A program made the position numbers and the translations under genes. Shown in pieces: positions 23,909 through 57,938 of a stretch of DNA of 60,482 nucleotides. Position 1 is the first letter of the stretch. Each line of letters opens with the position of its first letter. Location of the stretch: IMG/VR virus record IMGVR_UViG_3300040733_000119, positions 1-60,482 of that record, one strand, 5' to 3'. The notes beneath the pieces were generated by a model. That model was not told the DNA's origin, did no database searches, and saw only the letters and a program-made list of their open reading frames with translations. This DNA is from a virus (lineage: Duplodnaviria > Caudoviricetes).

Positions 23909-24051
23909 TTGCATTTGTGTAAGATATTATTACATTAAGGGGATTTTCTCAGCGATTCTGGAACGCAATGGAAATGCATCAGCTTGAGACCTGGGAGGGG
24001 ATATGGTGAGAATTGTAGGGCCTAGTCATCGAGGATGACTGGGCCTTTTTT
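23909..24051 (+). ncRNA. Putative small RNA B with its own promoter and terminator
   Basis: TTGCAT-16-TACATT; GGCCTAGTCAT/ATGACTGGGCC stem plus T run; paralog of 30236-30361. Confidence 0.55.
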
Positions 24052-24127
24052 GTGTTTAGGTACATTATGTATTATTACCTCTGATCAGATTTTGGAAATT
24101 CTTATCCGATAAAAACTAGAGGGAAAT

Positions 24128-24691
24128 ATGCCTAAAGTCAATTATAATAAATATATAAAACTAATAATAGCAATAATTTTAATAAGTTTTGGTACTGCAT
24201 GCAAAAGTCTAACACCACCGAAATGGGATATGTCAGCAGGAAATCCTCTACTATGGCGTACTATAACCTTTTACTTTCTTATATGTTTAGTAGGGATATT
24301 GACAAAATTTATTTCTGAGGACAATCGATTACCGAAAGAGAAACGATACGGTACGCTCTTCAACAGTGTAGTTGGAACGGTTAGTGGAATTGGTATATTC
24401 ATAATTTCTATTATTCTTTTTCCTCTGGCTACATTGCTAATATTAGCAATACTCGCGCTATTAGGTTATGCATTAAGTGGCGAAGCATTGAGCATTTCAT
24501 TTACATTTATGTTATTAATTCTACTTACCTTGGCAATATTAGTGGCTTTGGGTCTTTCAGTAAAAATGTGGACAGACATTGAAATCGATTTAGATAGTAC
24601 TAAAAGGCGAATAAAAGCCTTTATAAGCCTAATTTTATCTGGGATAGGATTTTACCTGAGTGCTCGAGATATTTATCAGCTATTTTTTTAA
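24128..24691 (+). CDS. Multi-pass membrane protein
   Basis: Several hydrophobic helices, AT-rich. Confidence 0.65.
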   Translation: MPKVNYNKYIKLIIAIILISFGTACKSLTPPKWDMSAGNPLLWRTITFYFLICLVGILTKFISEDNRLPKEKRYGTLFNSVVGTVSGIGIFIISIILFPLATLLILAILALLGYALSGEALSISFTFMLLILLTLAILVALGLSVKMWTDIEIDLDSTKRRIKAFISLILSGIGFYLSARDIYQLFF

Positions 24692-24740
24692 TGTAATATT
24701 GCCTGGTCAATCGCATCATATAGAGTAAATCGAGGCGTAC

Positions 24741-26192
24741 ATGGCAGTTAAACTTCGATTGCCAAAAGAAATATTAATTGGTGATAAAACATTACAGAAA
24801 ATATTGGACCTACATGAATTATGGCTGCGAAGTTTGCATCAAAGTGGAGTAAAAGCGGTTCTAAATGGAGCCAATCTCACTGGCACCGATCTCAGCGGAG
24901 CCACTCTTTCCGAGGCGGACCTCAGCGACTCCAATCTAAGCTATGCTAATCTCAGAGGAGCTGATCTAACCTATGCTAATCTCAGCGGAGTTGATCTCCG
25001 CAAGGCTAGGGTTAGTGTGGCCAGGCTCGGCGGAGCCAATCTCAGCCGGGCCAATCTCAGCCAGGCTAATCTTATCGAGTCCAATCTCAGCCAGGCCGAT
25101 CTTGAGAAGGCCGATCTTAGCTGTGCCTGCCTCACGATGGCAATCCTTATCTATGTCAATCTCAGCGGGGCCAATCTAAGAGGGGCCGATCTTCGCAGGG
25201 CAATTCTCAACGAAGCCTACCTCAGTTATGCCGATCTAACCGATGCTAATCTAAGCGGATCCCACTTTCTCAGGGCGAAGCTCAGGGCGGCCAATCTGCA
25301 CAACGCGAGCGCCAGTAGGGTGAAATTCAACAAAGCGGATCTCAGAGAAGCTAATCTCCAACTTGCTGATCTTTTCGAAGCTGATCTCAGCTTGGCCAAT
25401 CTTGAAAAGGCAAATCTCAGTGAGGCCAACATCAAAGATGCCAATCTATCTCACACTGACCTAACAAGGACAAAATTATTAAAAGCACATTTTACCGGGG
25501 TTGCTTTTCATGAAACAATCACTTTTAGTTGGATAATCGATGGAGTGAACTGTGATTATATTTTTCTTGACCAGCGTAAAAAGGAACGATTTCCAAAAGA
25601 TCGGAATTTTGAGCCAGGAGAATTTGAAAAAAATTATGCTGAAATCCCAACTATTGAAGAGAGGGCAGTTTTATCAAATGAGATAACTGAATTGAAAAAA
25701 AGGCTTAATGAACTTGAAATTTTTAGCTATGAAGCCTCAAATTCCGGTGGAATATTTATTAGTCATTCACATACTGACAAAGATGTTGTCAGCCACCTTA
25801 CATCCCGGTTCGATAAAAAGGGTATCCAATACTGGCTAGACGAAAAAGAAATGCTTGTAGGGCAAGTTATTGACAAGGCAATTTCTGAAGGCATTCAGAA
25901 GAGTTGGTTATTTCTAATCCTTTTAACACCCTCCTCAATTACGAGCAAATGGGTTGAGCGTGAGTTCGATGAGGCATCTCACGAGGAAGTTGAGGGTGGA
26001 AAAATAATCCTGCCTGTAATAGCAAAAGGACTCAAAATTGAGAGTCTTCCACCGAGAATTCGAAGGAAACTATGCGTGGATTTGACGACAGACTATGATA
26101 GAGGATATGAGAAGCTTGAGAAATCAATACTTACTTATTTAAAGAATTTTGCCTCATTACGAAATTCTGAGAAGCAGGAACGCGCGAGATAA
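24741..26192 (+). CDS. Pentapeptide-repeat protein with C-terminal TIR domain
   Basis: Long A(D/N)Lxx array; IFISHSHTDK, YWLD, SKWVEREF, ILPV. Confidence 0.92.
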   Translation: MAVKLRLPKEILIGDKTLQKILDLHELWLRSLHQSGVKAVLNGANLTGTDLSGATLSEADLSDSNLSYANLRGADLTYANLSGVDLRKARVSVARLGGANLSRANLSQANLIESNLSQADLEKADLSCACLTMAILIYVNLSGANLRGADLRRAILNEAYLSYADLTDANLSGSHFLRAKLRAANLHNASASRVKFNKADLREANLQLADLFEADLSLANLEKANLSEANIKDANLSHTDLTRTKLLKAHFTGVAFHETITFSWIIDGVNCDYIFLDQRKKERFPKDRNFEPGEFEKNYAEIPTIEERAVLSNEITELKKRLNELEIFSYEASNSGGIFISHSHTDKDVVSHLTSRFDKKGIQYWLDEKEMLVGQVIDKAISEGIQKSWLFLILLTPSSITSKWVEREFDEASHEEVEGGKIILPVIAKGLKIESLPPRIRRKLCVDLTTDYDRGYEKLEKSILTYLKNFASLRNSEKQERAR

Positions 26193-26214
26193 TCAGATTG
26201 CTTTGAGGGTAAGA

Positions 26215-27243
26215 ATGCGCTGGAAGTCGAAGACCACCAGATTAACTAAATGGCTTAATCCGAAGCGCCTCATCGAAAAAATATGGGAGGACGATTTCAA
26301 GATTTCCTTGTTCGTCCTTGTAGTAGCTTTCCTCCTCGTAAACCTCCCCACAATCCTCAGCGGCCGCTATCTACAAAAAGATTTCCTTGAAAGCATGCTG
26401 GCCAATGCCAATTCGATGATACTTGATATTCTTGTGATACTTTGCCTGACAACTTTTCTGATAAAGAAATCAGAGAAACGGCGCGAAATTCAACGGCTTA
26501 AAGATGAAATTGATGATTTCAGAGGTTGGAATTCCGAGGAAGCCGCTCATCGTATTAGAGGTATTATTTTTCGACTTAATAAATTTGGCGTAACCAAGGT
26601 TAACTTATCTTGTTGTTTTCTTAATAAGACCGATCTGAGCCAGGCCAATCTCAGTCAAGCCAAGTTCGGCCAAGCTAATCTCATTGGGGCCAATCTCAGC
26701 CAGACCATTCTTTTCAGTGCAGATCTCCGTCTTGCCAGTCTCCATGGGGCTGATCTCGGTGGAGCCGATCTTAGCCAGGCCGATCTTAGCCAGGCCGATC
26801 TTAGCCAAGCCGATTTCAGTGGGGCCATTCTCATCGGAGCCCGTCTCTGCGAGGCTGATCTCAGCCGAGCAAAACTCAGCCAAGCCGATCTGAGCCAGGC
26901 TAATCTCGGCGGGGCCAATCTAAGTGAGGCCATTCTCGTAAAGGCTGCTCTCAGACAAGCCGATCTCGGTCAGTACGATCCCCGTGCAGTCGTTTTTCAT
27001 GACTTTCCCATTTTTGACGATTTCGGGGAGCATGCTAATTTCACCCGGGCTAATTTAACGCGGGCAAATTTTATCCAAGCTGATCTTCATGGAGTTAAGA
27101 ATATATTAAAAGCACTAGGAATAGAATCCGCCGATTTCACCGATGCCATCATGGATGATGAAACCCGTGAATTCCTTTCCAAGATCAACCCGACCGTAAA
27201 GCCGGTGGAAAAGCTACCTAAAGAAAGTTGCGCAACTGATTAA
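26215..27243 (+). CDS. Membrane-anchored pentapeptide-repeat protein (paralog 1)
   Basis: Two TM helices, EIDDFRGW motif, A(D/N)LS repeats. Confidence 0.88.
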   Translation: MRWKSKTTRLTKWLNPKRLIEKIWEDDFKISLFVLVVAFLLVNLPTILSGRYLQKDFLESMLANANSMILDILVILCLTTFLIKKSEKRREIQRLKDEIDDFRGWNSEEAAHRIRGIIFRLNKFGVTKVNLSCCFLNKTDLSQANLSQAKFGQANLIGANLSQTILFSADLRLASLHGADLGGADLSQADLSQADLSQADFSGAILIGARLCEADLSRAKLSQADLSQANLGGANLSEAILVKAALRQADLGQYDPRAVVFHDFPIFDDFGEHANFTRANLTRANFIQADLHGVKNILKALGIESADFTDAIMDDETREFLSKINPTVKPVEKLPKESCATD

Positions 27244-27327
27244 ATTTCTTGATTTATCGACGGGGCAGAATGGGTTCGGAGAAGGCGATAGTGATCATGG
27301 ACTAATATCACAACATGGAGAAATATT

Positions 27328-29085
27328 ATGATTATGCGTAAACTGTTTTTATTAACATGCCCTGAATGCCATGCAAACTGTGAGATTTCAATCACAAGTC
27401 GAGAGTATTCCTCAGATGACAACTCCTACTATGATGAAAGAGTAACTTCATATAAAGGCTGCAAAACATGTGGAGGAGAGTCACTAATTTTTAATGAGAA
27501 ATGGCTAGAAAATCACAAGGCCCCTAGTAAAGAAAAGTTAGAAAGCATTAGGGGAAAAGGATTCTTTGTAATTACTGCTAACATTGAAGTAAATTTTAAG
27601 GACTACATTCTATCTGCACTGTCAAAAAAGTATTGGTTAGCATTTCAGAAGAGTTTGACTTTTGACCAAATTAAGGTTCAAAATGTCATGGCATCAAAAC
27701 GACGAAAATACGAAACGGTCGATGATCTTAATAGTATTGAAATTAAGTCCGCTCTTTTTGCAGGTATCGTTACAAGTTTTAAACTATTCACCCTTACTGG
27801 TAACAAGCTCCCGGTGCATGATGCACTTCACAAACGTGCAATTCAAGAAGTTGAAAATTACGTTGATACCATTTCCGATCAGGAAGTTATAACAAAGCTT
27901 GCTACTAACAGTGATAACCACTATATGAAATTGTTTGCGATTAAAAAGCTTAAAAATCAACAAATAATAAGTGAACTTGCGCTACATGACACGAACAAAT
28001 ATATTCGAATTGCGGCTATTGAATTGTTGGCCGATCAAAATTTGCTAATCCCCATAGCCCTGCAATGCAACGATATAGATGAGCGGGAAGCAGCAATAAG
28101 CAGGGTTAAGGATCAGCAAATATTAGCTAAAATTATTAAAAACAATAAAGAAGAAAATAATTTACAATTAATTGCCCTTAAAGGAATTTCCGATCAAGAA
28201 ATACTATTCCAAGTCATTATGGAATTTGATAATACGAACACAATACCAAAGGGAGGCGTCGAAATTGCTATAAAAGGAATCTCCAGCGAGGACCGATTAG
28301 ATGAAATTGCACAAAACACAGAAAGTACCGAACTACGCTATGCCATAATTAAAAATTTGAATAACCAGAAGATTTTACGAAAAATTGCGACCACTAATAC
28401 TGATAGCTCGGCCCGAAAGTTAGCAATGTTTAAAATAGCCGATGAAAGTGTTATAACTGAAATAGCTTTAAATGATGAAGTCGAATCTGTTCGAGAGGCT
28501 GCCATTGAAAAAATCGTAAATGAGGAAGTATTGGAGCAGATTGCACTAAATGATGAATCCAATATTGTTCGAAAGGCTGCTGTTAAAAAAATTGATAATG
28601 AGAAAGTATTGGAGCAGATTGCTCTGAATGATGAAGCCGAATATGTTCGAAAGGCTGCTGTTGAAAAAATCACAGAAGAGAAAATATTAAAGAAAATAGC
28701 TATAAACGATAAAGATTCGAACGTACGAAGATCTGCTGTTAAAAAAATCACCTATATGAAAATTTTGGGGCAAATAGAGCGGGAAGATGGTGACAGCGAT
28801 GATTGCATCGCGGCAATGATGGGTATCAAAGATCAAACCGTGTTAGTTCGGATTGCGTTAAGTACTAAAGATCAAGATATCGGCCAGATCGCTGTTCGCA
28901 ATATATCAGGCCACGAGGCGCTAATCCAGGTGGCATTGGAAGCTGCGCATTGGTCTGCTCGAATATTTGCAATTCCTAAAATTAAGGACAGGGAGATCTT
29001 AGCAAAAATTATAAAGCAAGACCCAAACGAGAAATGCCGGGAGGAGGCAAATCATTGGATGCGTAAAGATCCTAAGTACAGGTAG
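27328..29085 (+). CDS. Zn-ribbon plus HEAT-like repeat protein
   Basis: CPEC..CKTC; 26-aa repeats (VLEQIALNDE..VRKAAV.KI) with a 78-bp DNA period. Confidence 0.8.
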   Translation: MIMRKLFLLTCPECHANCEISITSREYSSDDNSYYDERVTSYKGCKTCGGESLIFNEKWLENHKAPSKEKLESIRGKGFFVITANIEVNFKDYILSALSKKYWLAFQKSLTFDQIKVQNVMASKRRKYETVDDLNSIEIKSALFAGIVTSFKLFTLTGNKLPVHDALHKRAIQEVENYVDTISDQEVITKLATNSDNHYMKLFAIKKLKNQQIISELALHDTNKYIRIAAIELLADQNLLIPIALQCNDIDEREAAISRVKDQQILAKIIKNNKEENNLQLIALKGISDQEILFQVIMEFDNTNTIPKGGVEIAIKGISSEDRLDEIAQNTESTELRYAIIKNLNNQKILRKIATTNTDSSARKLAMFKIADESVITEIALNDEVESVREAAIEKIVNEEVLEQIALNDESNIVRKAAVKKIDNEKVLEQIALNDEAEYVRKAAVEKITEEKILKKIAINDKDSNVRRSAVKKITYMKILGQIEREDGDSDDCIAAMMGIKDQTVLVRIALSTKDQDIGQIAVRNISGHEALIQVALEAAHWSARIFAIPKIKDREILAKIIKQDPNEKCREEANHWMRKDPKYR

Positions 29086-29243
29086 CTCTTGATCGCGGAG
29101 CTATATAAGAATGCCAGAGGCATCACCTCGCTAAAACTGAACCTGGCATTCAAATTCATATGTCTCGTTGGGGATGACTGTGTCGTCTACTGCAATCTCT
29201 GAATTAGAGAAATAAGAAGAAGGTTAGGAGAGGGGCCAAGGCT

Positions 29244-30239
29244 ATGCTTTGGAGACAAATCTGGGGAGCACTTAAATCTATAGAAGTGATAATAGCTGTA
29301 GCGATCTTCTTCGTTGCTCTGTTACTAATCAACGGCCTGACTCTCATTTTGCCCGCTGATAATAAATATTATTCTGATACCTCATTTTTAGATAATATGC
29401 TGGCAAATGCCAACACGATGATTTTTGATATTGCTGTGGTGCTGGTACTAAACACTTTCCTCTTAAAAATTGCTGAAAGACGGAGTAAGATCCAAGATTA
29501 TTTTGATGAAATTGATGATTTCAGGGGATGGGACTCAGAAGAGGCTTCCCATCGTATTAGAGGCATTATTTTTCGACTAAATAAATTGGGCGTAACGAAA
29601 ATTGAATTAAACAGATGTTTTCTTTATTGTGCCAATCTCAATGCAGCAGATTTTCGCGGGACCAATCTCAGTTATGCCGATCTTCAGAGGGCCGATATTA
29701 TGAAGGCCAATCTTAGCGGGGCCAATCTTGAATGTGCTAATCTCAGCGGTGCCAATCTCGGCGGTGCCAATTTCAGCGGAGCCTATCTCTTCAATGCCAA
29801 TCTCACCGGCTCCGATCTCAGCGCAGCCGATCTCAGTGAGGCTAATTTGAGCGAAGCTTATCTCAACGGGGCTGATCTCCACCTGGCCAATCTAAATGGG
29901 GCCAAACTCAATGGGGCCGATTTAAATGTGGCCAATCTCAGTATGTCGAATCTCGAAGGGGCCGATCTCGAAGGGGCCGATCTTAAAAGGGCCGATCTCC
30001 TCTTGACCAATCTCACCAAGACCGATCTCCACTGGGCTAAGCTCACCGGGGCCGATCTTAGGGGTGCCAAGCTCCGGGGTGTTAAAAACATATTAAAGGC
30101 AGACGGATTAGATAGCGTCGACTTCACCGATGCCATCATGGACGACGAAACCCGCGAGTTTCTATCCAAGATCAACCCGACGGTGAAGCCTTTGGAGAAG
30201 TCAACTAAAGAAAATGGCGGAAGTGATAAAATTGCTTGA
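29244..30239 (+). CDS. Membrane-anchored pentapeptide-repeat protein (paralog 2)
   Basis: Same EIDDFRGW and DFTDAIMDDETREFLSKINPTVKP segments as 26215-27243. Confidence 0.88.
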   Translation: MLWRQIWGALKSIEVIIAVAIFFVALLLINGLTLILPADNKYYSDTSFLDNMLANANTMIFDIAVVLVLNTFLLKIAERRSKIQDYFDEIDDFRGWDSEEASHRIRGIIFRLNKLGVTKIELNRCFLYCANLNAADFRGTNLSYADLQRADIMKANLSGANLECANLSGANLGGANFSGAYLFNANLTGSDLSAADLSEANLSEAYLNGADLHLANLNGAKLNGADLNVANLSMSNLEGADLEGADLKRADLLLTNLTKTDLHWAKLTGADLRGAKLRGVKNILKADGLDSVDFTDAIMDDETREFLSKINPTVKPLEKSTKENGGSDKIA

Positions 30240-30361
30240 CTTTTTGTAGAATATTGCTACATTGAATAATAAATACTTCGAAGTTGGGATGTGGACGCTC
30301 TCTCAGGAGGCGGCATGGTGGGAATTTAAAGGCTCAGTCATGAACGTGGCTGGGCCTTTTT
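30236..30361 (+). ncRNA. Putative small RNA C with its own promoter and terminator
   Basis: TTGACT-16-TACATT; GGCTCAGTCAT/GTGGCTGGGCC stem plus T run; paralog of RNA B. Confidence 0.55.
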
Positions 30362-30508
30362 ATTTTGCCTGAGTTAGACTTCTTTTTAGATTTTCATGAA
30401 TCTTCAAAATAGTACAGTCGTTCGACGGCCGAATTTCTGCAACTATATTAATCATTGATTATTATCACTTTTTAAAAGCAAAGAGCAAATAAGTGAGCAG
30501 GTACTAAA

Positions 30509-31198
30509 ATGAAATTGAAAGCAATAAAATGTCTACATAGTTTTTTCTGTTGGCTTAAAAAAAATCCAAACTTAGTCCTCGCTGTTTTGACATTTTTCTA
30601 TGTAGTTTTTACGTACTCAATAATGAAGCAATCAAAATCTCAGACGGAGATATTAGCATTTAATTCAAAAATATTAAATAGACCATATTTGGATATTTCG
30701 ATCACCAAATTTGATACATCTAATCCATTTAAACATAGATATCCAATAACTGACATCAATGGAACCATTCGCATTAATATCAGGAATAGAGGTAGGACTC
30801 CTGCAATCCCAATTCTGGTTGCGTTCCATGTAGACTCATTATCTACTAATCAGCTCAATTTGCGAGATACACTATTAATTAATAAGAAGTTGTTGCTAGA
30901 TACAGACAATGAAAATTTGCCAGAAATATTTCCTCAAGATTTCGAGTACCCACATGGAATAACGTTTACAGATAAAAGAACAAATCTGCAGGGCTATTTG
31001 TACGTTCATAATATTATTTTATACAAAGATAGCTATGATGATTGTCACGATTTCTATTCAATTACTCCATGTGTTTTTGATACTGCAAGACGAGGCAGAT
31101 TTGATTTTCCTGCCAGAATATCTATGCATGATTGGAGCGAAAAGGAAGTAAAAAGACTAAATAAAATATTAAACAAGAATAATGCAATTGAGCGCTAA
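30509..31198 (+). CDS. Single-TM hypothetical protein
   Basis: LVLAVLTFFYVVFTY..RPYL..NRGRTPA. Confidence 0.65.
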   Translation: MKLKAIKCLHSFFCWLKKNPNLVLAVLTFFYVVFTYSIMKQSKSQTEILAFNSKILNRPYLDISITKFDTSNPFKHRYPITDINGTIRINIRNRGRTPAIPILVAFHVDSLSTNQLNLRDTLLINKKLLLDTDNENLPEIFPQDFEYPHGITFTDKRTNLQGYLYVHNIILYKDSYDDCHDFYSITPCVFDTARRGRFDFPARISMHDWSEKEVKRLNKILNKNNAIER

Positions 31199-31315
31199 AC
31201 CTCACTTTTACAGTGGGTGTTCCTAAATTTACTATTTTTTCAGCTTTATTGAGCAAGGCTGTATCAAGATTATTCTGCATGGGCTGTTAGGGCTGATAAA
31301 AAAAGTAATGGGAGG

Positions 31316-32245
31316 ATGGATATGAAGATCACTTATTATAAATACTGGATTTGGCATAACAATCTGAGATACCGCCACAGTCTGCTTCCCCTGCTTGATG
31401 CGTTTGCCTCAATTGATGACCCTGTATTCAGACAATCCATCCGAACCAAAGAACAGGGTGAATCGATGATGCTCTATAAATTACGAGACAGGCTATTTCT
31501 TTTTCTAGTAACAAAGCCGGAAGAAATAATAAAGACCATCGATGCCAGAGCAAAGCCTCATGATATTTATGAAAAGCTCAGCAAGGAAGAAAAACTTTGT
31601 TTTGCCTCCTACATCTATCTCAGTGACAGCTTTTTCGCACTCGCAAGCACATTTCATGGTCCCAGATGTGCCTTTTTTCTGTTGTTTCTTAAGAAGATTT
31701 TGAGCAGATTACACTTGAATGATATGGTGATCGAGGCTGGAGGATTCCCATCTGAAGCGACAAGGGAAGAAGTGCTTAATTTTGAATTCAAAGGAGAGAT
31801 CTATTTTGAGATAGACCGGACAAGCCCATGGTTTTTAAGAATGTTTGGTGATCTGTTCGGCAATGAGGTTATAGACAGTTCTACCATTGGAGTTCATATC
31901 AAACCTGAACCGAGGCAGCAGATGCGACAATCATTTGATGAGATTGTTCGCAGCATTCCGGATGAGGGTCTGCGCAAATTTATAGTCAAGGCCAAACCAG
32001 ATATGGAAGATGCCCTGAGTGAGTTCTGCATCATCGGGAAAAATTATGTTCAAGATGCAATTACTAACTCGCGCAGCGAGGTAGCGATCTGTGAAGAGAT
32101 CGCTGATAAAATACAGCAAAACGCTGAATTGCACGAGAAAGTGAGGGAATATGAGCACGAAGGAGGTTATGAGGATGAAGATCTTCCGGGTCTCGCTCAT
32201 TTTAATATCCTTGATAATTGGAGGCCTATTATTGGCGCTGTTTGA
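31316..32245 (+). CDS. rexA: Lambda RexA-like exclusion protein
   Basis: Collinear similarity to lambda RexA as recalled: FLF, F.S(F/Y), GP, T(K/R)(D/E)(D/E)V..F.G, IKP, AK...D.L.E, I.EE.A. Confidence 0.7.
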   Translation: MDMKITYYKYWIWHNNLRYRHSLLPLLDAFASIDDPVFRQSIRTKEQGESMMLYKLRDRLFLFLVTKPEEIIKTIDARAKPHDIYEKLSKEEKLCFASYIYLSDSFFALASTFHGPRCAFFLLFLKKILSRLHLNDMVIEAGGFPSEATREEVLNFEFKGEIYFEIDRTSPWFLRMFGDLFGNEVIDSSTIGVHIKPEPRQQMRQSFDEIVRSIPDEGLRKFIVKAKPDMEDALSEFCIIGKNYVQDAITNSRSEVAICEEIADKIQQNAELHEKVREYEHEGGYEDEDLPGLAHFNILDNWRPIIGAV

Positions 32246-32597
32246 GTGCTGCAAATTAACGAAGGAAATGTTCTGCCACGTCGATGTAGTATCTGATATC
32301 ATTTCGACGTTTTGCATTGCGCTGATCGGAACGATGTCTGCGGTTATTGTGATAATAACTGGATTGAAAGATTCCTATTATATGAGGATCTACATTGCCC
32401 ATGGTCATTTTAAAAGGTATGTATTCCTGTATTTTTTCACTATCATATCATTAGTCTTGACTCATCTATTTTCGATCGCCGCTTTTTACTCTATCATTTG
32501 GTTTGATCTTATGCTGGCATCGATGATTGTGAATATTATTCAGTTTATATTTATTATTTCGATCACCTGGAGTGTCTATAATAAAAGCCCGAAATAA
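32175..32597 (+). CDS. Four-TM RexB-like membrane protein
   Basis: 140 aa, four hydrophobic helices, overlaps the rexA-like gene; SD AGGAGG. Confidence 0.6.
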   Translation: MKIFRVSLILISLIIGGLLLALFECCKLTKEMFCHVDVVSDIISTFCIALIGTMSAVIVIITGLKDSYYMRIYIAHGHFKRYVFLYFFTIISLVLTHLFSIAAFYSIIWFDLMLASMIVNIIQFIFIISITWSVYNKSPK

Positions 32598-32714
32598 ACA
32601 TTTTTTTAAATGCGCGGAATAATAAACCCAGTTTAAAACCGGTCATATTAATACCTGGCACCAAAGATATCCCTAAAAGCGCACAATCTAATCAGATATT
32701 CAGGAAATACTAAT

Positions 32715-33308
32715 ATGGACAGGAAAAAGGAGCCTGATTCTCCGCCGGCGGAAGAAATGACTAAAACTACATTATACGACTTTATTGATACCAACCACAA
32801 ATTAATCAGCTCCTTAGGGGTCTTTATTGCACTTACATTATTCTCAATGTCACTCCGTCTGTCTTATTTAGGCAATCTACTCACCATCTTATTGTTATTG
32901 CTAACGATTTTGATATGGTTTGAACTTGTATGGCGTTTACCTTGGGGCGATGTTTCTATTACATTGGGTCTTTTTAAGTATGGTATCCGTTTTATTTTCC
33001 CCCTACTTTTAGTATACCATCTTCTTGAATTTCGTGATTTTTGGCACGAATGGCTAAATTTACCCATTTGGACTTTACTGTTAGCGGGCGTTTCAGGACT
33101 CCTATCTAAAATTGGCTTCATTAAATGGGTCCATGCTGGAGCAACAACCTGGAAGCATAATTTGCGGACTCTCCTCGGGATAGTAATTTTTTTTGTGCTT
33201 TTATATCCAATAACGAAATTATCAAGTTATCTGGCCTCTGAAATAAATGCCAAACTTGATAAGACCTATACACATTTATTGGAAAAGAGCATTGAGGAGC
33301 AGAAGTGA
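32715..33308 (+). CDS. Multi-pass membrane protein
   Basis: About five hydrophobic helices; GTGA overlap with the MTase gene. Confidence 0.65.
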
Positions 33309-34939
33309 ACACCCTCTTCTATGGCGACAACCTCACCATTTTGCGTGAATATATTGCCTCGGAAAGCATCGATCTGATTTACCTGGATCCGCCCTTCAAT
33401 TCCAACCGGAACTATAATGTCCTGTTCAAAGAAGAGAGCGGCCAGGAGGCAGCGGCCCAGATAACCGCCTTTGAAGATACCTGGCATTGGAACCAACTGG
33501 CTGAGAAGACATATCAGGAGTTGGTGACTGATAGCAGTCCACGGCTTTCGAGCCTGATCAGCGCCCTCCGCCAAGCGATCGGGACCAATCAAATGATGGC
33601 CTACCTGGTGATGATGGCAGTGCGGCTCGAGGAGTTGCACCGGGTTCTGAAGCCTACCGGCAGTCTGTACCTACATTGTGATCCAACGGCGAGCCATTAT
33701 TTAAAAATTATCTTGGATTCAGTTTTCGGTGCCGACAAGTTCATTAATGAGGTTATATGGAAACGAACAAGCAGCCATAATGATGCACGTAGAAATTTTA
33801 GTAGCGTTAATGATAACTTGATGATTTACGGCAAATCTAACTCGTATTTTTTTAATCAACAATTCATACCGTATGATGCTAACTATATCAGAAACAACTT
33901 TAAATACAGTGATCCTGATGGTCGCCATTATTCATCAGCAGATTTACGTAGTCCAAATCCAAGGCCAAACTTAACTTATGAATACAAAGGCTACAAACCT
34001 CATGCAAATGGTTGGACAGTATCATTTGAAAAAATGCAGGAGTTGGATTTTCAAGGCAGGCTGATATTTCCTAATGATCCAAATGGTCGAATTCGGGTAA
34101 AAAAATATCTGGATGAAATGCCTGGCATTGCACTGAGTAGCATTTGGGACGATATCCCGCCAATTAGTTCTCAAGCAGCTGAACGCCTAGGCTACCCCAC
34201 CCAAAAGCCTGTTGCCCTACTTGAAAGAATTATCCAGGCCAGCAGCAATCAAGGCGATCTGGTCCTGGATCCCTTCTGCGGCTGCGGCACCACCATTGCA
34301 GCCGCCCAGAATCTTGGAAGGCGATGGATCGGGATCGATATTACCCACCTTTCCATCGCCTTGCAGAAATATCGCCTTACTGATGCCTTCGGTCTTGAGG
34401 TCGGAAAAGATTATCAGGTAATCGGTGAACCGGAGGATCTCGGATCTGCCAGGCAGCTTTCTCTCGACGATCGCTATCAGTTCCAGTGGTGGGCCCTTTC
34501 CCTTATAAAAGCCAGACCATTGGGAGAAGGCAAAGTCCGGGAAGGGAAAAAAGGTAGCGATCGGGGAATTGACGGGGTTATCTCATTTATCGATGAAGCG
34601 AATGGTCAAGCAAAGAAGATCCTGGTGCAGGTAAAGAGCGGCAAGGTTAAAAGCGGCGACATCCGGGACCTGCGAGGCACGATCGAAAGAGAAGGAGCCG
34701 CAATGGGTGTTTTCATTACCCTGGAAGCTCCCACCCGTGAGATGTTGGCAGAGGCTGTTGCAGCTGGATATTACAAGTCGCCGGGATGGAAGCGGGATTA
34801 TCCAAAGATGCAGATTTTCTCGATCGAGCAGTTGCTGACTGGAGGAGAAATCAAGATGCCACCAGCGGCAACAACCTACAAGACTGCCCGAAAGGCGCAA
34901 GCCGGAACTGGCGACGAGCAGCAGAATCTCTTCGAATAA
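33305..34939 (+). CDS. Beta-class N6/N4 DNA methyltransferase fused to an Mrr-like endonuclease domain
   Basis: [22 protein letters not shown]; C-terminal DRGIDG..VQVKSG. Confidence 0.9.
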
Positions 34940-34951
34940 TACTTTTTTATC

Positions 34952-35078
34952 TTGACAATGTCGTTAAAAATGATTTAATTTAACCATTATATTTGACCCG
35001 GGTGGCCGGGAAACGGAGCCCGTGTTTCGCTTTTTCTCTCGAAAAGAGAGGGAAGGTGAGGCACGGGCTCTTTTTTTT
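34952..35078 (+). promoter_or_regulatory. Promoter, leader hairpin and long terminator upstream of the capsid operon
   Basis: TTGACA at 34952; CCCGG-GTGG-CCGGG hairpin 34997-35010; 25-bp GU-rich stem 35016-35070 plus T8. Confidence 0.6.
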
Positions 35079-35167
35079 GTACCTACGGCGTGCTACCTCC
35101 ACACGCCCCATAGAGGCGGGGCGGGACCAGCCCAGCCCGCCCTGTCTCAATTCATAGGAGAAGGATC

Positions 35168-38100
35168 ATGCCTTATTCGAGTTTATCGGATGCGCCAGCC
35201 AGCTGGAAGAAGCTGGGGGATGTGACGCTGACACTTTCCCAGGTCAACTGGATCGCAAAGATCTACGACGCCCTGGTGGCCAAGGGCCTGGAAAAGGGAG
35301 TGGCTGCAGGGACTGCGATCAACAAATTCAAGAAATCCCACAAGATGGTGGACGGCAAGTGGGTAGCGGTCAAGAAGGAAGAGGACGAGGCAAACGAGGT
35401 CATCGAGATCACAGCCGAGGAGATCGAGGGAGGTTTGGAGGAGTTCCGGAACAGAGTCCGACAAGCCCTCAGAGCCAAACACCCCACCGGATACAGCTAT
35501 TTGAGGGACATCACCGGAGGCAATTCCGCCATTTACGAGATGAGCGATCCTAAAACCGGGGAGACCAAAACCTACAAAGCTCAATTTGCCGAGGTTGATG
35601 GCCAATTCATTTTCGGCGATCCCCAGGAAGTTGAGATCAAGGAAGTCGTCAAGCCGGTCCAGCCGGCAGCTGAGGAGAAGCCAAAGGGCGCACCGAATAC
35701 CCTGGCGGATTTCCTGATCGAGGAGACGGTCACCCGAACCGTAGAATCCGAAGCCGGGCTGCAGTTCAACCTCGCCGGGCATATCCTGCTGGAAGAGAAG
35801 GATCCAGCCCAATCGGACTCCATAAAGGCACGGGTGCCGATGATAAAGTTCGGCGCCCTCACCGACAACAAGAACCGCTACCTGGAGGAGTGCTGGGATG
35901 CGCTCAGCCAGGAGATTGCCCTATTAAACGAATCAAAAACGAAGCGCCGGGTGCTGGATATGTACCCGACGCACCGGCCTGCACTGGATCCGAAAGATCC
36001 GGATTATTTCATGCTGCGGGCTGCTAAAATCACCGGCGCCTCAAAACAAGGGGACGTCGGTTTCATCCATTTCGAGACCCTTCGGACCGAGGCCGGCCGC
36101 ACGATGGCTGTACAGGTTCAGGAAGGCATGGTGGACGGCGTGTCCCTGCGGGCCTACCCGCGACCTGGCTATTATCTCCAAAATGAGCAGGGTGGGCTCG
36201 ACGTGCGTCAGCTGCTGTTTATGGGTTCCGATTTCACCGACATCGGCGCCATGCCGATCGATGAAGGTCAAAAAGGTTTTCACTTAGAGGAGAAGCATGT
36301 CATGAACCTGGAAGAACTCAAGAAAACGGACCCGGAAGCCTATAACCGCGTCATGGCGGAGGCTGCCCAGGCTGAGGCCGCAAAGGCCAAGCCGCTTACC
36401 GAAGAAAACGAGCGGCTGAAAAAGCAGCTGGCTGAAGAGGCCGCCCAGCGGCGCAAGACCTCGCTGATCGAACATATCCGTGCCGCAATCGCCAAGGTCA
36501 AGGACTTTGGCGACACCGTCAAGGCCAATGTGCTCGAAGAGGTTACGGCAGTCATGGACCGGATCATGGCCGAACAGGCCAACGATGATGTGGCCAAACT
36601 GAAGCTGGAAGAGGTAGTCGCCAATGCCTTCAACCGCCGCAAGGCCGAGATCGCTGAAGCCCTGAAAGAGACCATGAAAGGTCAGCAAAAGATCATCACC
36701 GATCCCAGCGTCATTTCCACCCTGACCACCGAAGCCCGCCAGGCCGGGCTGACCAAGGAGATCACCGGCGGCTCCACCCGCATCCGGGACCTTCTGCTTG
36801 CCAAGGTGTTCAACCGTCCGGTGTACGAAAGCGGCCGGTTCCTGCTGGAATCGTGGGCCGACAAGCTGGAGCCCCTGATCCGGAAGCAGCTCTATTACAT
36901 GGACTTTGTCGGCAAGATGCAGAACGACATTTTCGCAGCCGGCGGCATGCTCCACAATATGCTGCTTTCCGAGGAGATGAACAAGGCGGTCGCTCCGCTC
37001 TTGACCGAAGCCAACGAAGGCACGACCACCGGCGTGATCAGCACCAACCTTCCCCATGAGGTCGCGGCTGCGCTGATCTATGCGGCATGGCCCGAGACCA
37101 TTGCCATGCAGATCTGCCAGACCGGCGATATGACCTCCAGCACCAAGGACATCTTTGAGGTCGGCTATCCCACCGGCGACAATGTGTTCAAACGCGGCCA
37201 GCATGAATTCGGCTGGGTCGATGAGGCCAATCCCACCACCCTGGTTCTGACCACGGCCAGCCCCACGACCTACGGCGATTTCGTCGATGAAGGCGCCCTG
37301 GCTGCATCCAGCAACCAGTATGCGGACCATCTTTTCGCCCGTCTGGTCGAAGCGCCGGTCGGCATCGACATGGTCATCACCATCACCGGCACCGATGAAA
37401 ACGGCACGGCTGCGACCTGGACCGTGACTTTCCTGACCACCGACGCCCTCGGCACCATCAAACGCTGCGCCCCGACCAACGTCGGCCAGAAATGCACCGA
37501 TGTGACGGCTGTTTCGGTTGCCGATTCCGGCACCCTGACGGCCGGCCAGGTCGGGTTCTTCGTCGAAAAGCCGGTCACCGGAGCCACTGCAGGATCCGCC
37601 GAGGACAAGACCTACCTGGGCATCACCAAGTCCACCGCCACGGCGGATGACTACGACCTGGGCGCCCGCCTCGACATCTCCCTGATCGAGGACATGCAGA
37701 TGGCCATGAAAGACGGCGGCGGTGGTCTGGATTACCTGGCCCTGATCGTCTCCACCCTCAAGAAGGCCATCATCGACCAGATCGACCGCAAGGTGCTCTA
37801 TGAGGTCATCGACGACGCCACCGGCGGAAGCCAGACCTTCGCTCAATCCACCCCGGAGTCCGGCTACACCCAGGCCGAGTGGAACAAGCGGTTCCTGTAC
37901 TACTGCGACCTTCTGGTCGATGAGACCAGTCTGGCCGGCAACATGGAACCCAACTGGATGGTGTGGAGCCGGGCCGACCGGAGCCGCTTCATGGACTGGC
38001 TGGCCGAAGGTTGGACCAAGTACAACGTGAACCGGAACGAACTTCATCTCAACAGCCGGACCATCGGCAACGTCTCCGGCTGCGAGGTGTTCGTCTCCCC

Positions 38101-38290
38101 CAATGCCCGTCGCTCCAGGGTGGCCACCGGCACGAACCAGTCCGGCGTCCACTACTACGTCTATGTTCCCTTTGTGCTCCTCGGGCCAACCTGGGTGCCA
38201 GATACGAAGGTGAAAGCAATCATGGTTCACCATCGCGCTGCTTTCAAGGTCACCCAGCCGCTGACCCTCGGCAAGCTGGCGATCAGTTGA
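35168..38290 (+). CDS. Capsid polyprotein: ChaB-like domain, T4 gp21-like prohead protease, scaffold and T4 gp23-like major capsid protein
   Basis: MPYSSLSDAP (ChaB-like); NKNRY, THRP, TEAGR..GVSLRA (protease); coiled coil; AWPETIAMQICQTGDMTSST, LKKAIIDQIDRKV, YVPF..P.T (gp23-like). Confidence 0.85.
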   Translation: MPYSSLSDAPASWKKLGDVTLTLSQVNWIAKIYDALVAKGLEKGVAAGTAINKFKKSHKMVDGKWVAVKKEEDEANEVIEITAEEIEGGLEEFRNRVRQALRAKHPTGYSYLRDITGGNSAIYEMSDPKTGETKTYKAQFAEVDGQFIFGDPQEVEIKEVVKPVQPAAEEKPKGAPNTLADFLIEETVTRTVESEAGLQFNLAGHILLEEKDPAQSDSIKARVPMIKFGALTDNKNRYLEECWDALSQEIALLNESKTKRRVLDMYPTHRPALDPKDPDYFMLRAAKITGASKQGDVGFIHFETLRTEAGRTMAVQVQEGMVDGVSLRAYPRPGYYLQNEQGGLDVRQLLFMGSDFTDIGAMPIDEGQKGFHLEEKHVMNLEELKKTDPEAYNRVMAEAAQAEAAKAKPLTEENERLKKQLAEEAAQRRKTSLIEHIRAAIAKVKDFGDTVKANVLEEVTAVMDRIMAEQANDDVAKLKLEEVVANAFNRRKAEIAEALKETMKGQQKIITDPSVISTLTTEARQAGLTKEITGGSTRIRDLLLAKVFNRPVYESGRFLLESWADKLEPLIRKQLYYMDFVGKMQNDIFAAGGMLHNMLLSEEMNKAVAPLLTEANEGTTTGVISTNLPHEVAAALIYAAWPETIAMQICQTGDMTSSTKDIFEVGYPTGDNVFKRGQHEFGWVDEANPTTLVLTTASPTTYGDFVDEGALAASSNQYADHLFARLVEAPVGIDMVITITGTDENGTAATWTVTFLTTDALGTIKRCAPTNVGQKCTDVTAVSVADSGTLTAGQVGFFVEKPVTGATAGSAEDKTYLGITKSTATADDYDLGARLDISLIEDMQMAMKDGGGGLDYLALIVSTLKKAIIDQIDRKVLYEVIDDATGGSQTFAQSTPESGYTQAEWNKRFLYYCDLLVDETSLAGNMEPNWMVWSRADRSRFMDWLAEGWTKYNVNRNELHLNSRTIGNVSGCEVFVSPNARRSRVATGTNQSGVHYYVYVPFVLLGPTWVPDTKVKAIMVHHRAAFKVTQPLTLGKLAIS

Positions 38291-38662: not shown

Positions 38663-38665
38663 TCC

Positions 38666-43321: not shown

Positions 43322-43330
43322 TCCCTGGAG

Positions 43331-45840: not shown

Positions 45841-45851
45841 GGAGGTCAAAA

Positions 45852-47024: not shown

Positions 47025-47025
47025 T

Positions 47026-50145: not shown

Positions 50146-50158
50146 AAGAGCGACAGCG

Positions 50159-50590: not shown

Positions 50591-50600
50591 GGCTGCTGAT

Positions 50601-51023
50601 ATGGCGCTGCTGTTTGAAATAACCTTCGCCGGCACGAACTGGGCAGACTTTGGCTTTACGATCGTGAAGGACGGCATCCAGGGGCTTGAAGCGATGCGGT
50701 CCCTGCGGCTGGATCTGGATTGGCCGGCTGCGAGCAACACCCCGATCTTTTACGGCAGCGAGCTTGAATCCCACCAGGTTACGGTCACCGGTGTGGTGGA
50801 AGGCTCATCCAGAGGAGACCTGAAAACAAAGCTGGAGCAAATCAAGGACTCCCTGGCCGATAGTCTGGGCGCTGTCCAGGAACTTTATTTTGGCGATGAC
50901 CTGGCAAACGGGTATCGCTGTGTTTTTGATGGAACATTCACGGTCAAAATGATCGGATCGGCAATAAATGGATCGGCCTGTCTTTTGACGGTCGGATTCC
51001 AGATTTTCAGTGAGAGGATTTGA
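50601..51023 (+). CDS. Distal tail protein-like (copy 2)
   Basis: Paralog of the previous gene (FEI.F.GT.WA..GF..VKDG.QG). Confidence 0.65.
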   Translation: MALLFEITFAGTNWADFGFTIVKDGIQGLEAMRSLRLDLDWPAASNTPIFYGSELESHQVTVTGVVEGSSRGDLKTKLEQIKDSLADSLGAVQELYFGDDLANGYRCVFDGTFTVKMIGSAINGSACLLTVGFQIFSERI

Positions 51024-55535: not shown

Positions 55536-55720
55536 AAGGAGAAATCAAATCTAACAGTAATAGTTAATTACGCTTAATAAAGAATACGCTGCGTTTCAAG
55601 ACACGCTAAGCTTTGAGGACCTGGGGAATCTCACACCTGATGGCCCTCTTCGTAACCCATTATTATTCTTACGGCCGTGCGTGGCGCTAAATGAGAATGG
55701 GAGAAAATCGAGGAGGTGCC

Positions 55721-56311
55721 ATGACTCTGCGTACTAAAATGACTATGTCGAGCAAGGGAATTGCCCTTATTAAACAATTCGAGGGCTGCTGCCTTACTAT
55801 ATACGACGACCAAGCCGGCTATCCCAGTATTGGAATAGGGCACCTGCTAACCAGAACAGAGAACGTCTCCGGCAAGATCTGGATTAGCGGCGCACCCTAT
55901 GTCATCTATTATGGGTTGACCGAAGAGCTCTGCATCGAGTTGCTAAAGCAGGATCTGCAAGTGCCGGTTGATACCGTCAACCAGGTAGTGCGGGTTCCTC
56001 TGAATCAAAACCAGTTCGATGCGATGGTTTCGTTTGTCTTTAATGTTGGATGCACTCGCTTCAGGAACAGCGCGATTTTGCAGGCCATCAACGCCGGACG
56101 GCTTGACCAGGTCCCCAGGCAGCTCCGTCTCTGGATCTACGTGAATGACAAGATCAGCAAAGGTCTGCAGAACAGGAGGGAGGCGGAGATCAAGCTCTGG
56201 AATACACCGGTCGAGAACGAAACTCCGGTGGATTCCATGCTGCCAATCGACTTTATCGATCCACCGGAGCCGCGCCGGCCATGGTATAAACGACTCTTTG
56301 GAATGAGGTGA
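55721..56311 (+). CDS. Endolysin, GH24 lysozyme
   Basis: IKQFEG..YDD.AG..SIGIGH, NQNQFDAMVSFVFNVG, GLQNRREAE. Confidence 0.93.
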   Translation: MTLRTKMTMSSKGIALIKQFEGCCLTIYDDQAGYPSIGIGHLLTRTENVSGKIWISGAPYVIYYGLTEELCIELLKQDLQVPVDTVNQVVRVPLNQNQFDAMVSFVFNVGCTRFRNSAILQAINAGRLDQVPRQLRLWIYVNDKISKGLQNRREAEIKLWNTPVENETPVDSMLPIDFIDPPEPRRPWYKRLFGMR

Positions 56312-56314
56312 GTT

Positions 56315-56563
56315 ATGAAACTTCCAGAAGCACTCAGGTTCGTGCCCAAGACCCTGGGGGGAGTCTTTGTGGTGCTGATCGGTGCGGGGATCCAGTACAT
56401 CCCGGTCATCGGCCAGGTAGCCGGCGAGGCGGTGATCAGCGCCGGCGTCATGGCCATCCTTTACGGAATCACCGACAAAGTGATCCGTTACCGCCAAGGC
56501 GGCGATGTACTGCAGAATGAAAAATATGTCGCTCGAAAAGTTCGGGCAACACTCAACAAATAG
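56315..56563 (+). CDS. Putative holin
   Basis: Two TM helices, basic C-terminus, follows lysin. Confidence 0.6.
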   Translation: MKLPEALRFVPKTLGGVFVVLIGAGIQYIPVIGQVAGEAVISAGVMAILYGITDKVIRYRQGGDVLQNEKYVARKVRATLNK

Positions 56564-56586
56564 CTATCTACAGAAAGGAGAAAGCT

Positions 56587-56889
56587 ATGGAACAGGAAAC
56601 ACTCAAAATCAAGGTATTCGGGATCGGCGTGAGCCTGGAATGGCTGATCAAGCTGCTGATGCAGCTGCTGGGCCAGGTCCTGGATCAGATCATCCCTGGA
56701 GAGAAACTGAGCAAGGACCAGAAGAAGGCGATCCGGACCCTGTACTACCTAGGGGACGAGTGGGGCGATGACTTTGTCGCTACCACACCCACGGACTTGG
56801 ACAACGAGGCTCTGGAGAAGATCAAGACAACCTGCGAGGACACGGCTGACGAAGGCGGCTTCGTCCTGCCGGTTGCCCCAGCTCTTTAA
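56587..56889 (+). CDS. Lysis-region hypothetical protein
   Basis: SD AAGGAG; TPTDLDN. Confidence 0.6.
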   Translation: MEQETLKIKVFGIGVSLEWLIKLLMQLLGQVLDQIIPGEKLSKDQKKAIRTLYYLGDEWGDDFVATTPTDLDNEALEKIKTTCEDTADEGGFVLPVAPAL

Positions 56890-56912
56890 CTCCCCACAAT
56901 CCCACAACACAG

Positions 56913-56944
56913 AACGCGGCTGCTTAACACAGCCGCGTTTTTTT
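56913..56944 (+). terminator. Late-operon terminator
   Basis: AACGCGGCTG-N7-CAGCCGCGTT plus T run. Confidence 0.75.
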
Positions 56945-57180
56945 ACCTTCACACCCGCCTGACAACACGTAAATCAGACTTATTTTGAGCCAAAGAAATT
57001 GATGAGCTTTCTTTCGCTCTTTTTTGCGAAAAACTGAATTATTTTTCGTCAATTCATCAGCTATTAACACTTAGATATGCAGAGAAAACAATAAGATATG
57101 AGCAATTTACTTGCATTTAAACGTAGTTAATGGCATGTTAATAATGGAGATAAGTGCTACATAAAATGCGGGAGGTTGCC

Positions 57181-57630
57181 ATGAATACCTATAAATTGCA
57201 GCGTATTGAAACTCACATAGTGCGGGATCCTGCCTACAACTCTCATTTAAAGCAGGTCATCGAGAGTTCTAATGATGCCTACGGGTTTGTCAAGGACCTG
57301 CAGGATGAAGCAGTTGAGAAATTCGTCGGTATCTTTTTGAACCAGCGGAATCGTGTTCTGGCAGTTATTGTCCTCTTCAGCGGCGGGACAAGTGAATCAG
57401 TAGTAGATCCAAAAGTCGTTTTCAAAACAGCGCTCGATCTTGGAGCTTCCGGAATAATCATCGCGCATAATCATCCCAGCGGTGATCCCAATCCATCTGC
57501 AGAGGATAAGGCTATCACGAACAAGTTAGCATCTGGTGCAAGATTCCTCGATATGCGCATCCTCGATCATCTGATCATTGGTTTTGACAAATACTTCAGC
57601 ATGGCCGATGAAGGGATCATGAATTCTTAA
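57181..57630 (+). CDS. RadC-like JAB domain protein
   Basis: E, HNHPSG.P.PS.ED, LDHLIIG. Confidence 0.92.
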   Translation: MNTYKLQRIETHIVRDPAYNSHLKQVIESSNDAYGFVKDLQDEAVEKFVGIFLNQRNRVLAVIVLFSGGTSESVVDPKVVFKTALDLGASGIIIAHNHPSGDPNPSAEDKAITNKLASGARFLDMRILDHLIIGFDKYFSMADEGIMNS

Positions 57631-57809
57631 TGAAGAGCGCCCCTATTTCTTCGAATAATTCAAAAGAATGGGGCTTCGCATATGTTTTCAAGTACGCTAA
57701 ACCATAATTCGACGCCTGCAGGCAAAATGCAGCTGTGTACAATGAACCCAGAAGAGTATGGAGCTAAAAATTCATCAAACATCTGAGTTAGTAAAATTAT
57801 AATATTCTC

Positions 57810-57938
57810 TTGACATTGTTGAAGGAAATTGTTACTATACATTTAGTGAGGTGAACGATTTTTAAATCGTGTGAGGGATATGGGGAAGCCGTCTTTGAAT
57901 GGCATTGATTAAATGCAAGTTTAGTCTATGCCTTTTTT
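57810..57938 (+). ncRNA. Putative small RNA D with its own promoter and terminator
   Basis: TTGACA-17-TACTAT; GAGGGATATGG core as in RNA B; stem 57901-57932 plus T6. Confidence 0.4.

Follow-up and report, generated by a model that had tools for sequence, protein, structure and literature searches.

The window analysed here is IMG/VR record IMGVR_UViG_3300040733_000119, a complete provirus of 60,482 bases. It contains two short units, B and C, in each of which a promoter is followed by a leader with a Shine-Dalgarno (SD) sequence and a start codon, and then by a terminator hairpin. B and C are true homologues and belong to an undescribed family, larger than could be seen when the initial annotation was made from the letters of the window. 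With moderate confidence, and from the sequences of the many copies described below, we propose that these units act in cis as portable promoter-leader-attenuator heads of accessory cassettes, mostly devoted to anti-phage defence, within a single lineage of temperate tailed phages; we therefore call them heads. Whatever their mode of action, they mark recombination breakpoints, at which cassettes are exchanged.

A family of cassette heads

The initial annotation described B and C as sharing related promoters, a 3' core and a terminator, and the sequences are as it described them. The window contains the promoter pattern common to both exactly two times, whereas 100 shuffles give an expectation of 0.00. 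The core pattern matches exactly at two positions, 23994 and 30306; when up to three mismatches are allowed it is found three times, against a mean of 0.25, and none of the 100 shuffles reaches three. Both units end with a hairpin of 14 pairs followed by a T-run.

Further copies were retrieved with a pattern that joins the core to the 5' arm of the hairpin, a match being taken as true when promoter, 3' arm and T-run were also present. Three of six stretches from genome_contigs were true, as were 25 of 42 from metagenome_contigs, where the other 17 were chance matches. Removal of duplicates left 21 distinct units, B and C included. A covariance model of the shared core and terminator (R1), with B and C in its training set, defines the family by the core GGGAGGGG-N4-AUG, followed by a hairpin with arms AAGGCUCAGUCAU and AUGGCUGGGCUU and a U-run; B and C have all of these, and there are 19 other full-length matches at 70 to 89 bits. 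R1 also found copies in L087 (82.1 bits), L092 (53.9 bits, with TTG as start codon), L093 and L089 (42.7 bits each, with a weaker hairpin) and at L047:3558-3621 (28.5 bits, with a different hairpin). The family thus counts at least 25 distinct copies, found in the DNA of related phages and in metagenomes. A single phage may carry several, two or three in the window and two in L021, and L047 and L065 contain tandem cassettes.

The initial annotation did not recognise the family and proposed an Rfam search. In Rfam 15 nothing reaches the gathering score over the whole window, and permissive scans around A/B (unit A lies beside B), C and a third unit, D, gave sub-threshold noise, topped by anti-hemB on unit A at 20.4 bits for a gathering score of 49.5. 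A blastn search with positions 23600-24130 found no match among 50,697 phage records. In IMG/VR, the core motif retrieved 17 stretches, all of them chance SD-ATG gene starts without a hairpin, and the terminator motif retrieved 11, two of which were true, both on the L021 contig. The related phage G004, in its 42.6-kb record, has neither a B/C-type unit nor unit A, and a search of genome_contigs with the capsid protein of the window found no relative. Copies are present on two small contigs of metagenome-assembled genomes (MAGs) named 'bacterium' and 'uncultured Lentisphaera sp.', although the binning of such contigs, of 2-7 kb, is weak evidence of a host; over 151 genomes of the order of one MAG with copies, the sole R1 match was that MAG. 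Taken together, the phage-record, IMG/VR, 151-genome and G004 results indicate that heads are a feature of accessory cassettes within one phage lineage, and not of its backbone or of a host clade. A look-up in sequencing runs listed no RNA data set, and one DNA run with a small share (0.09) of the sequence words. A full-text literature search returned no title or abstract describing this head element.

Anatomy of the conserved leader

The promoters fall into two classes, both with TACATT 16 nucleotides (nt) after a TTGNNN hexamer. Class I, in 14 parsed copies including B, is a near-identical block of about 45 nt (TTCCGCAAAA.GCCTTG.TTTTGTGTATAATATTATTACATT); class II, in six parsed copies including C, reads GCTTGACTTT...TTACATT. 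The leader is about 95 to 110 nt long, and its 5' half exists in at least five unrelated versions. Its 3' half has a mean column identity of 85% over 21 sequences, and consists of CYGGGAGGGGAUAUGGUGGGAAAUUGA, the hairpin and the U-run, which is interrupted in three copies (L052, L057 and L069). The initial annotation held that the differences between the B and C terminators all keep pairing. This extends to the 21 distinct members, in which 98.2% of hairpin cells pair and 8 of 13 pairs vary on one side, from G-U to G-C or A-U. Because G-U pairs are conserved in the stem, the hairpin appears to be an RNA structure made from the plus strand. A consensus fold of ten type-1 leaders gives the terminator and a small hairpin only, and leaves the core unpaired.

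Within the core, the 8-nt SD (GGGAGGGG), a 4-nt spacer and the AUG are invariant or nearly so. The codons that follow vary, and the stem starts about 15 nt after the AUG. Single-base indels shift the frame of the resulting mini open reading frame (mini-ORF), which has four codons in 10 of 18 parsed copies, and 9 to 56 codons, running into or through the hairpin, in the remaining eight. By eye, four codons are also counted in C, both L021 copies, L052, L087 and L093. In 9 of the 16 copies of the parse concerned, +15 is the last base of the stop codon, and the G-C core of the stem begins at +16 or +17. That the minigene peptides are not conserved, as noted earlier from three units, therefore holds across the family, and since codons, frame and length all vary, the peptide is not the selected feature. 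Copies with other hairpins, namely the upstream copy of L047 and unit D, retain an SD and an AUG 14 to 21 nt before the stem: the former contains GGGAGGGGTTATG and a five-codon frame ending at the base of its hairpin, and the AUG of the latter lies 21 nt before its own. Selection may bear on the start site and its constant distance to the hairpin.

The L021a unit, whose leader is long, contains there a small SD-led ORF of about 33 codons (L021 4787-4888). This encodes a basic N-terminus and then a hydrophobic segment, and its product could be a small membrane peptide.

Two functions suggested in the initial annotation find no support in this anatomy, and we consider both very improbable: a sponge RNA titrating CsrA/RsmA, and a toxic minigene similar to lambda bar. 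In favour of a sponge, the SD contains one GGA and another usually lies about 13 nt farther on, but the second is lost in B, L021b, L058 and L089/L093. Known CsrA sponges carry many GGAs in loops, whereas the units, which had been described as GGA-rich, contain three to seven per RNA, with zero to four of them unpaired in the minimum free energy fold (16 parsed units), and thus do not resemble CsrB or RsmZ. As for a minigene of the lambda bar type, which is a very short ORF with a strong SD, toxic upon expression when peptidyl-tRNA hydrolase is limiting, the strong SD followed by four codons in 10 of the 18 copies would be suitable, but neither the length nor the frame of the mini-ORF is kept.

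Cargo, predicted read-through and recombination

Four related phages were recovered by searching with the capsid protein. In three of them (L022, L023 and L024) homology skips from position 22186 of the window to 34945-34998. The intervening 12.8-kb stretch is therefore an accessory island that occupies a hot spot flanked by the head and capsid genes; the fourth, L021, has a smaller island at the same site. Units B and C both lie inside the island. In 15 of 18 parsed copies of the family, a co-oriented ORF of at least 60 amino acids (aa) is found 27 to 156 nt past the T-run, the remaining three having only 62 to 148 nt of flank. Most of the cargo is defence-like and includes an HNH protein; HsdR_N; ankyrin followed by a PLD/PbeA-like protein; DUF2971/PDC-S31 followed by an EcoRI-type methylase; Mrr followed by HEPN; Mrr-nSTAND3/PDC-S73; GmrSD/HEC-05; and, in the window, a TIR cluster and RexAB. 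Domain content and island comparison thus bear out the earlier observation that the units stand upstream of accessory cassettes. The shortest spacers between T-run and gene measure 27 nt (L058), 36 nt (L037) and 44 nt (L081). Because such a spacer cannot hold a promoter and a ribosome-binding site, these three genes must be transcribed through the terminator.

Recombination has taken place at the heads themselves. The segment 30306-32612 of the window comprises core, terminator, a 229-aa gene and RexAB. Its identity to L021 is 97%, compared with 80 to 82% for the flanking backbone, and its left breakpoint is the first base of the unit C core. Mosaic combinations of parts are found elsewhere: L058 and L080 have a common leader half with different cargo, and differ in promoter (class I versus class II); L075 and L080 have a common promoter and upstream flank with different leaders; L053 and L065 have a common leader with different cargo.

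Alternatively, the units could be independent genes for trans-acting small RNAs (sRNAs), for example G-rich decoys or sponges for C-loop RNAs such as unit A, or regulators of host or phage mRNAs, their position before cassettes being incidental. Their own promoter, length of about 100 nt and terminator are those of an sRNA gene, the most conserved part is single-stranded and complementary to the loops of unit A, and each version of the variable 5' half might provide a seed region of its own. However, spacers of 27 to 44 nt make the genes concerned depend on read-through, core and terminator travel with the downstream cassette, and the 5' halves are shuffled independently of all else. We therefore find this hypothesis rather unlikely.

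Unit D had been placed in the family by the initial annotation. GAGGGATATGG is indeed present in it, as are an SD-ATG frame and a hairpin with a T-run; its promoter aligns with class II promoters and its core with GGGAGGGGATATGG. On the other hand, it scores 8.8 bits with R1 (E 0.98), against 77.0 for B and 70.6 for C, and its hairpin is unrelated to theirs, so that we do not count it as a member. It is an analogous unit, and possibly a diverged relative with a replaced hairpin. Its site, after RadC, is that of true members in L052, L053, L058 and L081, 4 of the 17 other loci examined, a small ORF intervening in L053, L058 and L081. RadC is the conserved anchor gene of another hot spot for accessory genes, the second one, located at the right end of the phages.

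Unit A, a candidate companion RNA

Directly 5' of B lies another conserved unit, A, which was missing from the initial list. Its consensus comprises a promoter (TTGACAGCA-N-TATATT), a variable first hairpin, a conserved second hairpin and a terminator (GCGCCCGAUC-loop-GAUCGGGCG) with a U-run, and compensatory changes are found in 5 of 19 pairs among seven aligned copies. A model of the unit (R2) scores 80.4 bits in the window and has 10 further matches, of at least 31.7 bits, at other loci, those of L038 and L041 being identical. Unit A directly precedes a head in six loci (B, L037, L038/L041, L047, L069 and L087) and stands farther upstream in L046, L065 and L079; some R2 matches are 0.1 to 1.4 kb from the head.

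The terminator loops of unit A are 45 to 69% C (CCCCUCC, CCCCUUC, CCCCCUCCC, CCCCCC and similar) and complementary to GGGAGGGG. Predicted duplexes between loop and core have energies of -11.4 to -18.4 kcal/mol, matched by only 0 to 2.3% of random 25-mers, and in L037 the match reaches 11 nt, extending into the AUAU spacer. When the loop of the window's unit A was compared in silico with 76 translation-start regions, the B mini-ORF came first (-14.7 kcal/mol), C third and D ninth, a ranking in which the core is also the strongest SD of the window. Folding of whole RNAs A and B with duplexfold was uninformative, shuffles being equal or better. Since its C-rich loop complements the SD of the core, unit A may take part in the control of the heads.

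Parallels exist in other systems: the rep genes of plasmids pT181 and pIP501 are subject to antisense-RNA-mediated transcription attenuation, and the UCCC-motif RNAs of Staphylococcus are sRNAs with C-rich, anti-SD loops. Unit A is similar in that a C-rich loop, predicted to be exposed, is complementary to the G-rich SD of a terminator-ended leader. It differs in that it adjoins the leader on the same strand and is not antisense to it, in that the pairing is a predicted one, and in that a preemptor helix finds no covariation support.

An unrelated unit, also composed of promoter, short RNA and terminator, was noticed in L021 (4356-4495) and in L065 (380-435), where it is in tandem with unit A. 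The loop of its inner hairpin, GACCCCCCUAA or UAACCCCCCUAAU, is C-rich, and these units may form a second family of C-loop small RNAs.

How the heads might work

From this anatomy we infer a mechanism in which the synthesis and termination of the RNA, the effects of ribosome and unit A on termination, and the physiological signal are all predicted steps. Most transcripts from the strong promoter, which is of the sigma-70 type, would end at the terminator and yield a short RNA, leaving read-through as the only route to the cassette genes. A ribosome on the tiny frame would cover the 5' arm of the hairpin and favour read-through; masking of the SD, for which the C-rich loop in the terminator of unit A is the candidate agent, would favour termination. 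In addition, phages would exchange cassettes at the heads, whose conserved sequences would serve as homology patches. Occupancy of the core seems the most economical gate, because the only strictly kept single-stranded element is a strong ribosome-binding site abutting the hairpin. Among the three hypotheses of the initial annotation, that of a conditional attenuator fits the anatomy best, in view of the co-orientation with the genes, the spacers of 27, 36 and 44 nt and the SD-AUG abutting the terminator; infection as the trigger of release is a conjecture of that annotation.

Among the closest known counterparts are the attenuators of the pyrBI leader and of rph-pyrE, in which a short translated frame likewise runs up to or into an intrinsic terminator placed before the regulated genes, and in which, as would be the case here, the ribosome blocks the hairpin. 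The heads also have an SD-led ORF that reaches the terminator hairpin. They differ in that their frame has mostly four codons, with the hairpin about 15 nt past the AUG, in having no link to nucleotide pools, and in being portable and multi-copy. Attenuators of the trp/his type, with runs of regulatory codons and a conserved antiterminator helix, are not a suitable model, the codons of the heads not being conserved. In E. coli, a translating ribosome near a terminator represses it (PMC4824070).

Several points weigh against this mechanism. The covariance model that had been proposed as a check does find homologues across related DNA, but compensatory double changes are seen in none of the 13 pairs of the head hairpin; all changes are one-sided, and the conserved pairing is thus no proof by covariation. 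The constancy of SD and AUG in 21 copies is partly a matter of ascertainment, because the search pattern required GGAGG and ATG, a bias escaped only by the few copies found with the model. All copies come from one narrow lineage, and their conservation could stem largely from recent common descent or gene conversion. As to the ribosome, the same source reports that translation lowered the efficiency of a terminator 30 bp past the start codon by about 10%, the first ribosome arriving late, and that leaders of the pyrBI type work owing to pause sites (PMC4824070). With an effect of some 10% in the absence of a pause, gating of the heads by ribosomes would need RNA polymerase to pause. A segment of the leader that would mask the SD in cis was tried and rejected: among 21 real leaders (L042 was left out as a false positive of the regular expression), three beat shuffles (p<=0.02), the others giving p values of 0.11 to 0.98. 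An antiterminator helix between AUGGUGGG and CUCAGUCAU was also rejected, as 92.3% of its cells pair with no compensatory change and 13 cells unpaired; it is missing, moreover, from the copies with other hairpins. Finally, no unit A was found within the flanking DNA examined around the other heads, and its match to the core is not proof of specificity, because any C-rich loop pairs with any strong SD.

The small effect of the ribosome, and the lack of support for anti-SD and antiterminator mechanisms, therefore leave a static cassette, and likewise the trans-acting role of the short RNA considered above, as serious rivals, if unlikely ones in our estimate. In a static cassette, a strong promoter and a leaky terminator would set a low, constitutive level of toxic defence genes and insulate the neighbouring cassettes, and the constancy of sequence would result from gene conversion and recombination between copies. 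A breakpoint at the core, mosaic combinations of parts and a terminator without covariation are all expected under this hypothesis, and translation hardly affects a terminator near the start codon (PMC4824070). It has a precedent in the PeSLs (promoter-early stem-loops) of T4-type phages, repeated cassettes of a strong sigma-70-like promoter and a terminator stem-loop placed between non-essential ORFs in hyperplastic regions, where recombination between copies mediates the modular shuffling of cargo (PMC2839356). The heads are likewise repeated cassettes that lie between accessory ORFs and act as recombination sites. However, the stem-loop of a PeSL is located within or beside the promoter and stops upstream transcription (PMC2839356), whereas the hairpin of the heads begins about 80 to 95 nt past the -10 element, some 100 nt downstream of the promoter, after a leader with an SD-AUG mini-ORF. 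Because it follows promoter and leader, it would stop its own transcript. The heads have no sequence similarity with PeSLs, and reside in temperate siphovirus-like phages instead of T4-type ones. A static cassette also leaves unexplained that SD and AUG stay at a fixed distance where the hairpin has been replaced (D, L047), that loop and codons drift while the 8-nt SD does not, and that there is a companion RNA with a complementary loop.

Phage morons, autonomous prophage units of promoter, gene and terminator, are also similar in part. As with morons, accessory genes with a promoter of their own are inserted between conserved phage genes, and the island is missing in relatives. The terminator of a moron, however, follows the gene, whereas the heads add one between promoter and gene, and their promoter-leader part is a conserved, reusable module.

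Extending the attenuator hypothesis, one may imagine a two-RNA checkpoint on prophage immunity. The heads would keep toxic cassettes off, unit A and the ribosome would compete for the 8-nt SD, and a change in translation or in the sRNA, for instance upon superinfection or induction, would flip all such cassettes at once, the heads serving as recombination sites as well. We offer this as a speculative scheme, which we think unlikely as a whole.

Late antitermination, an improbable model, and the capsid leader

The question also arises whether a phage antiterminator could pass these terminators in lytic growth, as in the lambda PR'-qut-6S RNA-tR' arrangement, where a constitutive promoter makes a short, terminated RNA before genes that depend on read-through. 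The general layout is the same, the island lies inside the late structural operon, and in all five phages the capsid gene is preceded by a promoter and then a hairpin resembling a terminator. However, no Q-, N- or NusG-like protein was found among the 38 proteins scanned with Pfam and the 35 scanned with PHROGs, although an antiterminator of a novel kind could be present. The heads, unlike the lambda unit, are accessory, exist in many copies with variable leaders and do not stand at the head of the late operon; they come and go with accessory cassettes and are missing from the 42.6-kb record of G004. The capsid leader has no significant similarity to them (10.8 bits). Defence genes of the lambda RexAB type are, moreover, expected to act in the lysogen. 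We consequently judge late antitermination to be quite improbable.

The capsid leader deserves mention in its own right. In all five related phages, including the three without the island, the capsid gene has its own TTGACA promoter and a long terminator-like hairpin with a T-run, at 35020-35076 in the window. A second highly conserved, GC-rich and structured stretch contains CUACCUCC. No Rfam family matches the capsid leader, the top score being that of bglG-cis-reg with 26.5 bits, where 80 is the gathering score. Possibly this leader forms a distinct element that regulates the major late gene.

Organisation of the provirus

Scans with Pfam, PHROGs and PADLOC give the window the layout of a temperate tailed phage (Table 1).

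Table 1. Units, leaders and main genes of the 60,482-base window
Feature	Position	Strand	Remarks
Unit A	23769..23890	+	promoter TTGATA-17-TATATT (23769-23797); RNA of about 90 nt with two conserved hairpins, the second an intrinsic terminator with C-rich loop CAAACCCCTCC
Unit B promoter (class I)	23909..23936	+	TTGCAT-16 nt-TACATT; block of about 45 nt including upstream TTCCGCAAA in 14 parsed copies
Unit B leader RNA	23943..24053	+	variable 5' half; invariant core GGGAGGGGATATG (SD and AUG at 24003); R1 77.0 bits
Unit B mini-ORF	24003-24038	+	11 codons
Unit B terminator hairpin (a T-run follows)	24017-24047	+
Unit C promoter (class II)	30236..30263	+	TTGACT-16 nt-TACATT; overlaps stop codon of preceding gene (ends 30239)
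Unit C leader RNA	30270..30364	+	own 5' half; core GGAGGCGGCATG, AUG 30315; R1 70.6 bits
Unit C mini-ORF	30315-30329	+	MVGI, 4 codons
Unit C terminator hairpin	30328-30359	+
Unit D	57810..57938	+	promoter TTGACA-17-TACTAT; SD-like GTGAGGGAT; AUG 57880; 10-codon ORF ending within hairpin 57901-57932; T-run
Capsid-gene leader	34952..35167	+	unrelated to heads; R1 10.8 bits, E 0.31
Integrase	1-1047	minus	Pfam/PHROGs scan
S24 repressor, YqaJ/RecT recombination genes, DnaB helicase			in the window; domain scans
Terminase, then portal	17030-19438		domain scans; position is that of terminase
Head morphogenesis genes	20861-22221		domain scans
Accessory (defence) island	22222..34950	+	missing in L022, L023 and L024; content from Pfam and PADLOC
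Island: KAP NTPase (PDC-S20) gene		minus
Island: pentapeptide-repeat, TIR and HEAT protein cluster	24128-30239
Island: 229-aa protein, then RexA-like and RexB-like genes	30509-32597
Island: 197-aa protein and MTase-Mrr fusion
Capsid fusion protein, then tail genes and lysozyme	35168-38290		1040 aa; domain scans; position is that of capsid protein
RadC	57154-57630
Integrase fragment	59994-60482	minus	right end

Three further features were noted. The large terminase, of 802 aa, has a LAGLIDADG_3 match at residues 271-342, before its Terminase_6N and 6C domains, which suggests an intein or an inserted homing endonuclease. In the capsid protein, the Gp23-like fold is restricted to residues 631-1019, and the N-terminal 600 residues, coiled-coil-like and rich in Glu, Lys and Ala, could represent a scaffold or protease fused to it. 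A perfect hairpin that resembles a bidirectional terminator (59825-59873) separates the integrase fragment from the last accessory genes, and gives weak R1 matches on both strands, of 18.8 and 17.2 bits.

Conclusions

The defence hot spots of prophages are well mapped, but how their cargo, often toxic, is controlled, and how cassettes pass from phage to phage, is poorly understood. In the lineage studied here, one short, reusable module acting at the RNA level seems to do both jobs, in front of genes as different as RexAB-like, TIR, Mrr/HEPN, GmrSD-like, STAND and PLD genes. Should the gate exist, diverse defence systems would have a common regulatory handle, R1 and R2 would be markers with which to find new defence cassettes in uncultivated phages, and the heads would provide a compact natural promoter-attenuator part. 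If they are static insulators only, they would nevertheless add an independent case, the second and one from outside the T4-type phages, of modular shuffling driven by regulatory cassettes.

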